Shown piece by piece: positions 32,432 through 33,994 of a stretch of DNA of 64,000 bases. Under the pieces are notes generated by a model. The model was not told the origin of the DNA, searched no databases, and saw only the letters and a list, made by a program, of their open reading frames with translations. The position numbers and the translations under genes are program-made. The stretch's first letter is position 1; every line of letters starts with the position of its first letter. This DNA comes from Polyangiales bacterium. Its GTDB lineage: Bacteria; Myxococcota_A; Polyangia; Polyangiales; Ga0077539. The stretch is from NCBI GenBank assembly GCA_044229975.1, contig JBGARZ010000003.1:128001-192000 (forward strand). The letters are read 5' to 3'.

Positions 32432-32478
32432 GCGACTTTTTGGGTTGCGGTCGGAGGGCGCTCGCGACTAAAAGTTGC
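32432..32478 (+). promoter_or_regulatory. Putative paired activator sites (GCGAC-N7-GTTGC and GCGAC-N5-GTTGC)
   Basis: Two imperfect inverted repeats with A/T-rich cores, 50-100 bp upstream of a sigma54-like promoter. Confidence 0.4.
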
Positions 32479-32529
32479 CCGCGCTTGGCCTTTGGCTCTT
32501 TAAGACTGGCTTACCGAGGCCCGCTCGCG

Positions 32530-32545
32530 GGGCACGAAAATAGCT
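32530..32545 (+). promoter_or_regulatory. Putative sigma54 (-24/-12) promoter
   Basis: GGCACG-AAAA-TAGC gives exact GG-N10-GC spacing and is close to the TGGCACG-N4-TTGC consensus; about 30 nt before ATG 32576. Confidence 0.6.
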
Positions 32546-32575
32546 GTTTCGTAGACGTACGGAGAGACCGGGAAG

Positions 32576-32788
32576 ATGTCCAAGGCACAGTGGAATGGCG
32601 CGCTGCTCATGGTCGCAGCGATGTCGGTGGCGGGTTGTGAGCACGCCCTGGTCGGCAACGCGACGGCGCTGGTGTTGACCCTCGGGCTCTTCGTCGGAAC
32701 GCTCCAACTCGGTCGCCAGCGCGCCCCCCAGGTCGGCGCCAGCGAAGTCACCACCGTCGCTTCTTCGTCGCAGACCTCCGGCCGCTGA
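32576..32788 (+). CDS. Small (70 aa) membrane protein, lipobox-like
   Basis: Hydrophobic stretch ending VAGC, then a second hydrophobic helix; ends 18 nt before the next gene. Confidence 0.6.
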   Translation: MSKAQWNGALLMVAAMSVAGCEHALVGNATALVLTLGLFVGTLQLGRQRAPQVGASEVTTVASSSQTSGR

Positions 32789-32806
32789 CGTGGGGCCGCG
32801 GCGCCC

Positions 32807-33994
32807 ATGACCGACCTCCGGTCGATCGGGTTTCGCACCCTCGACGAGTTCACCCTCGGCGACCTCGACTCCCTCTGGAACATCCTCCGCGGCGACTCGG
32901 CCATCGACTGGCGCAGGCTCCACCTCGCCGATCGCTACGACGCCGAGGAGTTTCTCCGCGCCAACGAGTTTCACCCCGAAGACCCGCAAGACGCGGCGCG
33001 GCTCAAGGCCATCAAGCTCGAAGCGATGGAGTACCTCCGTCGCAACTTCGAGTACCCCATCCCCGACCCCATCGAGGCGTGCTCCGTCGAAGAACTCCTC
33101 GGCGTCGCCTCGGGCAAGGGGCACCGGCAGGTGTGTGCCTGCGTGATCCTCAAGGTCATGCACATCATCCATCACCTCCAGGGGCGCGAGCTGCTCTTCT
33201 CGCTGCCGCTCTCCGACGCGCAGGTCTTCCAGCTCGTCGAGGCGAAGATCTTCCGGGTGATGGGCGAGATGCTCTCGTCGGGCCTGCCGATCGTGCAGTT
33301 CAAGGGCGGCCGCAAGACCCGCGACTCGCTCTACACGAAGCTGCTTTCCAAGAGCGATTCCATCGCGGCGCAGATCTACGACAAGCTCCGCTTCCGGGTG
33401 GTGACCCGCGGCCCGGGCGACGTGCTGCCGGTGCTCAACTACCTGTCGCGGCGCCTCTTCCCCTTCAACTACGTCATCCCCGGCGAGAGCAAGAACACCC
33501 TCGTCGACCCGCGCGCCCTCACCGAGAAGCACCCCAACCTCGCGGCGCACTTCGACGACCCGCGCTCGCACATCCGCAAGGGCGCCGTCGCGCAGCTCAT
33601 CGACAACCGCTTCAGCGCCCCGAGCTACCGCGTGATCCATTTCGTCGTCGACCTGCCGGTGCGCCTCCCCCGCGAGGTGCTCGATCGGGCGCCCGAAAAC
33701 GTCCGCTCGCTCGGCCCCGTGGTGTTCGTCCTGGCCGAGTTTCAGCTCGTCGATCAGGACACCGACAGCCACAACGACACGGGCGCGGCGTCGCACTACG
33801 AGTACAAGGAGCGACAGCGCGAGGCGGTGCGCACGCGCCTGCGGCTCGCGAAGCAGCGCGGCTCGCGTCACACCCGGCCGCCGCCCGCGCCGGTGATCGT
33901 CTCCCCGCCGCCCCCTCAGGGCGACTCGGCGAACTCCACGTCGACCGGTCGCGCGCCCGAGCGCCGCACGAAGACCCGACCGCGCTCGTCCTGA
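32807..33994 (+). CDS. TIGR04552-like protein; divergent RelA/SpoT-type nucleotidyltransferase domain
   Basis: N-terminus ILRGDSAIDW recalls TIGR04552/TIGR04562 (from memory); motifs GRKTRDSLYTKL, IYDKLRFRVV, SYRVIHF, EFQL, SHYEYK. Confidence 0.8.
   Translation: MTDLRSIGFRTLDEFTLGDLDSLWNILRGDSAIDWRRLHLADRYDAEEFLRANEFHPEDPQDAARLKAIKLEAMEYLRRNFEYPIPDPIEACSVEELLGVASGKGHRQVCACVILKVMHIIHHLQGRELLFSLPLSDAQVFQLVEAKIFRVMGEMLSSGLPIVQFKGGRKTRDSLYTKLLSKSDSIAAQIYDKLRFRVVTRGPGDVLPVLNYLSRRLFPFNYVIPGESKNTLVDPRALTEKHPNLAAHFDDPRSHIRKGAVAQLIDNRFSAPSYRVIHFVVDLPVRLPREVLDRAPENVRSLGPVVFVLAEFQLVDQDTDSHNDTGAASHYEYKERQREAVRTRLRLAKQRGSRHTRPPPAPVIVSPPPPQGDSANSTSTGRAPERRTKTRPRSS

Follow-up and report, generated by a model that had tools for sequence, protein, structure and literature searches.

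A TIGR04552-family protein of a Polyangiales bacterium as a predicted, divergent RelA/SpoT-fold enzyme encoded downstream of a conserved, predicted membrane micropeptide

The window analysed here is a 64-kb stretch of a Polyangiales bacterium genome (contig JBGARZ010000003.1 of assembly GCA_044229975.1, contig positions 128,001-192,000), and all coordinates below refer to it. On its forward strand, at 32807-33994, lies a gene for a 395-amino-acid member of the TIGR04552 family whose C-terminal domain is predicted to have the RelA/SpoT synthetase fold. The interpretation that best accounts for the evidence, and to which we give about an even chance, is that the protein acts as an ATP pyrophosphotransferase of low output whose purine acceptor is not the standard one. 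Just upstream, at 32576-32788 on the same strand, is a gene for a 70-residue small membrane protein that ends 18 nt before the enzyme gene starts. Both open reading frames (ORFs) and the gap between them are in the ORF list, as stated in a preliminary description of this DNA made from the sequence alone.

Membership of the family, which the preliminary description had presumed, is clear from the hidden Markov model search, where residues 19-345 score 335.5 bits against TIGR04552 (cut-off 125) and 325.9 bits against TIGR04562 (cut-off 140). The nearest named records, from Myxococcota genomes, are 76-88% identical. The chain divides into an all-helical N-terminal domain (residues 1-160; 32807-33286), the synthetase-fold domain (residues 161-345; 33287-33841) and a disordered tail rich in proline and arginine (33842-33994), in which pLDDT is mostly below 55 and the family alignment consists mostly of gaps. 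No HD, TGS or ACT domain was found in the protein with Pfam and NCBIfam, in agreement with the earlier description.

The AlphaFold2 model was built on 125 sequences and has a mean pLDDT of 89 and a pTM of 0.86, with disorder after about residue 350. In Foldseek it gave 39 matches at E ≤0.001 with RelP and RelQ on top (E 3.5e-6 to RelP), and those listed were all RelA/SpoT homologue (RSH) synthetases. The same held for the eight best rows of a VIA comparison with 48,161 chains, in which Rel came first (Z 11.1, rmsd 2.8, 130 aligned), with RelQ at Z 10.6 and RelP at Z 10.3 and 10.0, while the toxic small alarmone synthetases (toxSAS) scored lower (CapRel Z 6.4, Tas1 Z 6.2, FaRel Z 5.2). The comparison of a predicted structure with RelQ, RelP and FaRel that had been proposed earlier therefore did return the RelA/SpoT synthetase fold. 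Profile-profile alignment with 29 myxobacterial Rel proteins gave a probability of 93% (E 2.6e-7), and hhalign gave 66% to long Rel and 0.7% to the separate small alarmone synthetase (SAS) of the source genome.

Most of the catalytic apparatus is retained. In FaRel2, the active site described in the part of the source available comprises R64, K66, S70, K74, R77, D90, G93, R95, Y128, E145 and Q147 (PMC11782079). With equivalences assigned by motif register and conservation taken from an alignment of 125 homologues, the first five correspond to G168, K170 (98%), S174 (94%), K178 (96%) and S181, the next three to D192 (97%), R195 (98%) and R197 (94%), and the last three to Y274 (Tyr 75%, Phe 17%), E311 (95%) and Q313 (94%). 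H330, Y333 and K334 are conserved in 91-94%, and all ten core residues (K-S-K-D-R-E-Q-H-Y-K) are kept in 103 of the 119 homologues that cover all ten positions. Conservation of the catalytic Asp and Glu, on which the earlier proposal depended, is thus evident at D192 and E311. On the forward strand these residues are encoded at 33308-33340 (K170/S174/K178), 33380 (D192), 33395 (R197), 33626 (Y274), 33737-33745 (E311/Q313) and 33794-33808 (H330/Y333/K334). The preliminary description had listed five synthetase motifs in the correct order; the peptides that it quoted are present in that order, but motifs 1 and 3 are flawed. Its reading of motif 1 was shifted by one residue, since K170, S174 and K178 set the frame and place G168 where the canonical Arg would stand. 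In motif 3, neither the Ser nor the His is conserved in the query's branch, the position of H278 being Asn in 42% and His in 29%.

It is at the acceptor side that the family departs from Rel. Elements that are invariant or nearly so in the 29 Rel proteins (P-K-x-N, Y-x-S-L-H, Q-I-R-T and M-H) are replaced in the family, and the Rel-invariant A-E positions are likewise taken by family-specific residues. The family has invariants of its own, namely N230, N267, D316, N323, R336 and R344, together with S270 and Q337 at replaced Rel positions and C112 and K116 in the N-terminal domain. The G-loop Tyr, which binds the guanosine acceptor in (p)ppGpp-making SAS (PMC5794853), is represented by Y274. 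The earlier proposal of a divergent RelA/SpoT synthetase with a remodelled acceptor site is consistent with both this conservation and the predicted fold.

A sister branch, reached through a 27%-identical match in a phage collection and including Vampirovibrio chlorellavorus and other Vampirovibrionales, appears from its sequences to bridge the TIGR04552 family to canonical RSH enzymes. A set of 117 of its members is about 27% identical to the query and conserves the ten core residues at 89-100%; the closer 78 keep Y-R-S-x-H (Y 98%, S 88%, H 96%), and all but one of these have Arg at position 227. The new acceptor-site invariants occur in both branches, a pattern more readily explained by a substrate that was retained in altered form than by decay. 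In a quick tree the two branches come apart with support values of 96 and 86, but long branches meet and no origin is shown.

The N-terminal domain is the second distinctive part. The extra helical N-terminus of about 160 residues noticed earlier is borne out by the model (pLDDT above 90 for most blocks) and by conservation of G29, S31, D34, C112, K116 and H119; K116 is near-invariant, and H119, H123 and R127 are conserved in the family alignment. The domain is net acidic (18 K/R against 26 D/E). Folded alone, it gave no clear structural match (best Z 5.9, to RbcX). A low-confidence profile alignment extends it into the HD/linker region of Rel; an origin as a pseudo-HD domain was considered and received no confirmation from the structure search, although a missing match is weak evidence. 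Domain fusions offered no clue to function either, as no credible fused form was found among proteins of 693-2000 residues and the one longer match apparently has an over-called start.

Comparison with described systems places the protein closest to the synthetase domain of long Rel (8acu, 6yxa and the genome's own Rel), its best match by both structure (Z 11.1) and profile (93%), with which it has the QI[YF]D, IPG and G-x-x-x-H-x-x-YK patterns in common. It differs from long Rel in having no HD hydrolase, TGS or ACT domain and in the replaced K-x-N, QIRT-Arg and MH positions. RelQ (SAS1) and RelP (SAS2) (5dec, 6fgk, 6ewz) resemble it in being stand-alone synthetase folds (Z 10.0-10.6) and in the Mg/ATP residues and G-loop Tyr. 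However, the query has the extra 160-residue helical domain, an insertion of about 35 residues before the G-loop, no motif-1 Arg and a rebuilt acceptor pocket, and is only 18-22% identical in structural alignments; the canonical K-x-N, Y-x-S-x-H and Q-I-R-T of the RelP/RelQ pocket are replaced in its branch, YRSxH surviving in the sister branch only. The toxSAS enzymes, whether acting on tRNA (FaRel2, CapRel) or making (p)ppApp (Tas1, FaRel), are similar in catalytic fold, N-terminal helical decoration and a small neighbouring gene. In contrast to them, the query scores lower (Z 5.2-6.4), belongs to a chromosomal, single-copy core gene family with viable mutants, flat expression and no conserved antitoxin, and has an upstream membrane peptide as its neighbour rather than a pZFD or Tis1 protein. 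Within TIGR04552/TIGR04562 (MXAN_4858 of Myxococcus xanthus; DOE51_RS08710 of Bdellovibrio NC01; WP_303673400.1 of V. chlorellavorus) it is a full-length member of the same length and motifs, set apart only by a longer disordered tail, and the family name carries no function. The source genome also encodes, besides Rel, a separate, conventional-looking SAS of 421 residues (RARVK...YRSIH...EVQVRT; L082, G000:C14:16609-20046).

In the favoured interpretation the enzyme would be active, with ATP as the donor of a pyrophosphate that is passed on, slowly and under gating, to a purine-ribose acceptor at its 3'-OH. ATP-Mg would sit in the donor site through K170, S174, K178, K182, D192, R197, E311 and Q313, the purine base would stack on Y274, and the rebuilt pocket would select, in place of standard GTP or GDP, a free purine nucleotide recognised in a different way, with a product of the pGpp or (p)ppApp type. 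The helical domain, with its C112/K116/H119 face, may gate activity or shape the acceptor site. The product would be a nucleotide signal apart from the main (p)ppGpp pool made by Rel, and a low or N-domain-gated turnover would explain flat expression without an antitoxin.

Several observations weigh against this interpretation. One concerns the motif-1 Arg (the equivalent of FaRel2 R64), which is present in 29/29 Rel proteins and appears from the alignments to be missing from the whole family: position 168 is occupied by G, S or N in 98% of the 125 homologues, and Arg is not among the common residues there in the 117 sister proteins. An Arg-to-Gly exchange is said to inactivate RelQ. According to the part of the FaRel2 study available, R64 stacks on the donor adenine and contacts the ribose and phosphates (PMC11782079). 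R195 was considered as a stand-in for the lost residue (an R168/G195 swap), which fits the query's branch but fails in the sister branch, where Gly stands at 195 and yet no Arg is found at 168. The fifth basic residue (FaRel2 R77) would be S181 here, with K182 one place on. Furthermore, the protein stays at 19.6 bits in the Pfam search against PF04607, below the cut-off of 27, and a PDB sequence search gave E values of only 0.03-0.7. Some family members do pass the gathering cut-off (for example G002 with 29.2 bits), and a manual count puts the homologues with a precomputed PF04607 mark at about 68 of the 120 listed. Finally, the choice of acceptor would rest on elimination, with no positive signature.

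The trigger of development in M. xanthus is (p)ppGpp, and the process is usually put down to Rel alone; relA mutants reportedly do not accumulate (p)ppGpp on starvation (work attributed to Harris, 1998). The family member MXAN_4858 is transcribed flatly (RPKM, reads per kilobase per million, 51-103) according to the portion of PMC6791715 available, and the accessible parts of PMC11980068 give lower levels in csgA and fruA mutants. The parts covered of a barcode-sequencing (BarSeq) preprint (bioRxiv 10.64898/2026.08.28.747804) call the gene uncharacterised, describe viable insertion mutants with a mild gliding-like developmental profile, place it near the G1 glt cluster, cite an earlier insertion with no overt motility effect and make no link to RSH. 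In Bdellovibrio NC01, the gene acquired a frameshift in one evolved line, as far as the available part of PMC9888234 tells. Earlier censuses may have met the family: in the sections available, Atkinson 2011 has an unclassified 'SYNTH' entry for Sorangium and one for M. xanthus (YP_633016), and none for Bdellovibrio or Haliangium (PMC3153485), and Jimmy 2020 lists an extra 'Rel[S]' for M. xanthus (PMC7229694). As MXAN_4862 is YP_633021 (PMC3169522), YP_633016 differs by no more than one or two accession numbers from the one expected for MXAN_4858, so the census probably caught the family and the two are probably the same protein, although the identity could not be proved. No discussion of TIGR04552 as an RSH family was found in the literature searched, whose coverage left out most subscription journals.

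The best-surviving alternative, itself unlikely, is that the protein is an ordinary (p)ppGpp SAS that maintains a basal level or responds to stress other than amino acid starvation, its substitutions representing drift or compensation. In its favour, the nearest structures are those of Rel, RelQ and RelP, all (p)ppGpp synthetases and scoring far higher than toxSAS, the sequence lies closer to long Rel (hhalign 66%; 93% by profile) than to the genome's own SAS (0.7%), the sister branch retains YRSxH and R-S-R-N, and in one bacterial family the gene heads a DUF507-yicC-gmk run. However, the P-K-x-N loop, the QIRT Arg and the following His of the 29 Rel proteins are replaced in both branches, relA mutants of M. 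xanthus reportedly build up no (p)ppGpp on starvation, and the gmk link is limited to that one family.

Next comes a pseudo-synthetase that binds ATP or an alarmone as a sensor or scaffold, for instance in the gliding or envelope machinery, without catalysis. We consider this improbable. It would accommodate the family-wide loss of the motif-1 Arg, the gliding-like profile that MXAN_4858, a gene close to the G1 glt cluster, shows in transposon sequencing (Tn-seq) (as far as the covered parts of the preprint go) and the occurrence of the family in predatory lineages. On the other hand, the metal ligands D192 and E311, plus Q313 and H330, are conserved at 91-97% here and 89-100% in the sister branch, no conserved glt link was recognised in 100 loci (60 neighbour proteins annotated), and the earlier insertion cited in those parts had no overt effect on motility.

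A housekeeping pyrophosphotransferase acting on RNA 3' ends (tRNA-CCA or other RNA), with the N-terminal domain recruiting RNA like the N-terminal helices of FaRel2, is more doubtful still. It could draw on that extra domain with its near-invariant K116 and conserved H119, H123 and R127, on the Arg of Rel 'RFKD' being E or Q in the query's branch, on the adjacency to yicC in one bacterial family, and on the smaller basic patch that tRNA-targeting toxSAS have at the acceptor site (PMC11782079, in the part available). Against it stand the weak structural similarity to CapRel (Z 6.4) and FaRel (Z 5.2), the net acidic charge of the N-terminal domain and the R-S-R-N of the sister branch. Moreover, tRNA modification would be toxic if nothing checked it, and there is no conserved antitoxin to do so.

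TIGR04552 scores above cut-off in 199 of 301 Myxococcota genomes, nearly always as one copy, and in 48 of the 49 genomes of the order, with no match in 14 control genomes; PF04607, by comparison, is above cut-off in 61/61 sampled genomes of the class, almost all in frames of Rel length. No relative was found in viral contigs, by a search that detects close relatives only, or in a plasmid collection, and PADLOC returned no match. The family is chromosomal and mostly single-copy, not a mobile toxin, and the toxSAS-like role entertained earlier does not suit a core gene absent from the viral and plasmid collections searched. The sole record in the phage collection carries its homologue among glyS, gatD, secDF and acpS. 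This record, MW495066.1 (115540-132607; L199), is titled 'Microcystis phage MaAM05', also carries mtgA, and encodes a TIGR04552 homologue 93% identical to a V. chlorellavorus protein; the stretch looks like bacterial chromosome filed as phage.

The 70-residue ORF upstream is a real gene under purifying selection, as seen from its codon changes and profile matches. Over 47 codons, comparison with five close relatives gives 15-17 synonymous and 5-8 non-synonymous changes, and a sixth, more distant relative gives 8 synonymous and 18 non-synonymous changes. Conservation and coding capacity, both expected in the preliminary description, are therefore supported. The peptide is found in 68 of 80 loci, 66 times upstream on the same strand and twice on the other, a count that is partly by construction as the profile was iterated on the fetched loci; one of the 12 loci without a match has no upstream DNA. 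As controls, the profile has one match in its own 10-Mb genome and turns up in 74 of the 301 phylum genomes sampled, including 47 of the 49 in the order (one weakly). No Pfam or NCBIfam family covers the peptide, and in the ESM Atlas only hypothetical Myxococcota clusters were found, below 0.9.

Two hydrophobic helices had been described in this protein. The second is a predicted transmembrane helix (residues 27-47, 32654-32716, with the conserved pattern GN-x10-F-x-G-T-L-x-L-G-R) followed by a variable polar tail, but the first looks like a lipoprotein-type signal (residues 1-21) ending in a lipobox, V-A-G-C, at 32627-32638, so that a single membrane pass is predicted for the mature peptide. 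The lipobox C21 is present in 53 of 66 peptide rows and missing from 13, while F39 and T42 are invariant and G27, G41 and L45 exceed 90%. In other orders, forms of 26-29 residues with the second helix only and no signal precede the enzyme, which suggests that the working part is one transmembrane helix. The likely product is a micropeptide that spans the membrane once and, in most lineages, carries a lipid. A ribosome site, GGAGAG, lies at 32561-32566 on the forward strand.

The linkage of peptide and enzyme is old and real, but not obligatory. In the order, both positions are listed for 43 genomes; the peptide is directly upstream in 38 of these, elsewhere in four and separated from the enzyme by contig ends in one (manual comparison), and it is also directly upstream in seven genomes outside the order. 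In a 1.8-Mb genome (G095, 96% complete), the peptide is directly followed by DUF507 and yicC with no enzyme match, and in M. xanthus the gene upstream of the enzyme has 160 codons. The gap between peptide and enzyme ranges from about 14 to 540 nt with other ORFs intervening, on which grounds an upstream-ORF or translational-coupling role was rejected. That the peptide directly regulates the enzyme is possible but not probable. Two side observations concern these loci: the locus of the AT-richer G095 genome (L132, C1:1113755-1116907) keeps the peptide and leader motif and has a stop inside DUF507, and 14 loci in the L030-L061 range have a Pro-rich lipoprotein-like ORF (C-x-S-P-G-F) between peptide and enzyme.

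Both genes are likely to have a sigma-70-type promoter in common. A putative -35 hexamer TTGCGG (32445-32450, forward) and, 18 nt past it, a putative -10 TAAAAGT (32469-32475, forward; family consensus TAGAAGT) are identical in 6/6 same-genus relatives. The -10 is one of two expectation-maximisation motifs from 75 upstream regions, 66 of which were aligned on it and nine left out for poor scores; their consensus is TTG-N21-TAGAAGTT. The TTG of the -35 is kept in 12/12 aligned regions, and T/T/G occur in 65/85/74% of the 66. A sigma-70 consensus scanner placed TTGCGG-N18-TAAAAGT below its threshold, so the assignment derives from conservation. Seven sequencing runs matched at 5-7% of words, and the four that were aligned yielded assembled contigs of relatives and no transcription start.

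The GG-N10-GC element (GGCACGAAAATAGC) described earlier as a sigma-54 site is present at 32531-32544 (forward) but is judged a chance match. Two such elements occur in the 240 nt against 2.5 expected, 8-of-10 sigma-54 matches number 21 in the window on both strands, and the site is lost in 6/6 same-genus relatives, all of which keep TTGCGG-N18-TAAAAGT. Sigma-54 or activator control of this locus, as previously proposed, was rejected on these grounds. Elsewhere, 19 of 75 regions, most of them from one related group, have TGGAAC-N5-(T/A)GC at a distance of 145-202 nt ahead of the peptide, a site absent from the window's genus; its 22 occurrences with an 8-of-10 match compare with 3.5 in shuffles, the kin not being independent. 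In Labilithrix/Polyangiaceae-type loci (L039, L037, L030, L017, L051, L042 and others), a conserved TGGAACG-N4-GTGCGA, located 145-202 nt ahead of the peptide start and likewise absent from the window's genus, is sigma-54-like or ECF-like (extracytoplasmic function).

The paired inverted repeats of the preliminary description were found. One has arms at 32427-32440 and 32470-32483 (79% complementary), the left of which varies in relatives, and is most likely a by-product of a T-tract and the A-rich -10. The other is a weak, short stem-loop in the predicted 5' leader (32520-32531, forward) that overlaps the alleged -24 element; relatives fold a 5-bp stem there, with one stem column varying on one side and none on both. 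A structured RNA leader was rejected, given that no Rfam family matched the leader and only one two-sided change was seen in 18 pairs. Many loci (L105, L112, L053, L072, L024, L032 and others) have an imperfect palindrome, TGTAG(G/C)A-N5-TC(C/T)TACA, about 25-45 nt past the start of the -10 and after TTG(G/A)CC, which may serve as the operator for a repressor or as another sigma-70 promoter; in the window's genus only its right half, CTTAC (32508-32512), survives.

A module in which sigma-54 and an activator control the enzyme and the membrane peptide restrains it, as an antitoxin does a toxin, is very improbable: the adjacency in 38/43 genomes and the TGGAAC site in 19/75 regions speak for it, but the window's own site is lost in all six relatives, no peptide match exists in 227 of 301 genomes while the enzyme is in 199, the peptide is unlinked in four genomes and enzyme-free in G095, M. 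xanthus has a 160-codon gene at its position, and there is no homologue in the viral contigs or plasmids and no PADLOC match.

The surroundings of the gene are lineage-specific. In the window, a divergent ParA/Soj-type ATPase gene (PF13614; 31505-32362, reverse) is followed by a Lon protease gene (TIGR00763; 28999-31419, reverse), and a manual count over 80 loci gave ParA in 11 and Lon in 30. ParA, Lon, DUF2400, DUF507-yicC-gmk and kinases are each limited to one lineage, and 20 loci, mostly from other classes, have almost no neighbours in common; gene neighbourhood was accordingly rejected as a guide to function. Polyangiaceae-type genomes have DUF507, usually yicC, and the guanylate kinase gene gmk after the enzyme gene, a run not seen in other families (DUF507 and gmk beside the enzyme gene in 32 loci, L013-L075; manual count), and a single genome from another class has its TIGR04552 gene back-to-back with rpoN (L153, G169:C148:158400-171400). 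Downstream in the window, a convergent 561-residue gene (33916-35601, reverse) overlaps the last 79 nt of the enzyme gene with its 3' end; its product is Cys/Asp-rich and secreted-looking, with a weak MopE-type metal-binding motif. Beyond it lie a weakly TIGR04551-like protein (35587-37137, forward) and a 1096-residue lipoprotein-like ORF with no Pfam match (37137-40427, forward).

The family itself was already catalogued, with many members marked PF04607, and the query is an ordinary member; the micropeptide constitutes an unannotated family, with 47/49 sampled genomes of the order carrying it. It is conceivable, if unlikely, that these proteins form an overlooked ancient RSH branch in predatory bacteria (Myxococcota, Bdellovibrio, Vampirovibrionia) that makes an undescribed second messenger or a housekeeping mark on RNA ends. 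In that case the gate would be a helical domain unlike any known structure, and in Polyangia the enzyme would be tuned by the micropeptide, lipidated and single-pass, as a reporter of the state of the envelope. The loss of a supposedly essential Arg with the other catalytic residues kept would inform RSH catalysis. The synthetase-fold reading also touches the so far unexplained Tn-seq phenotype of MXAN_4858 in the covered parts of the preprint and, if true, a second synthetase-fold enzyme would add a nucleotide-signalling route to the model organism M. xanthus.

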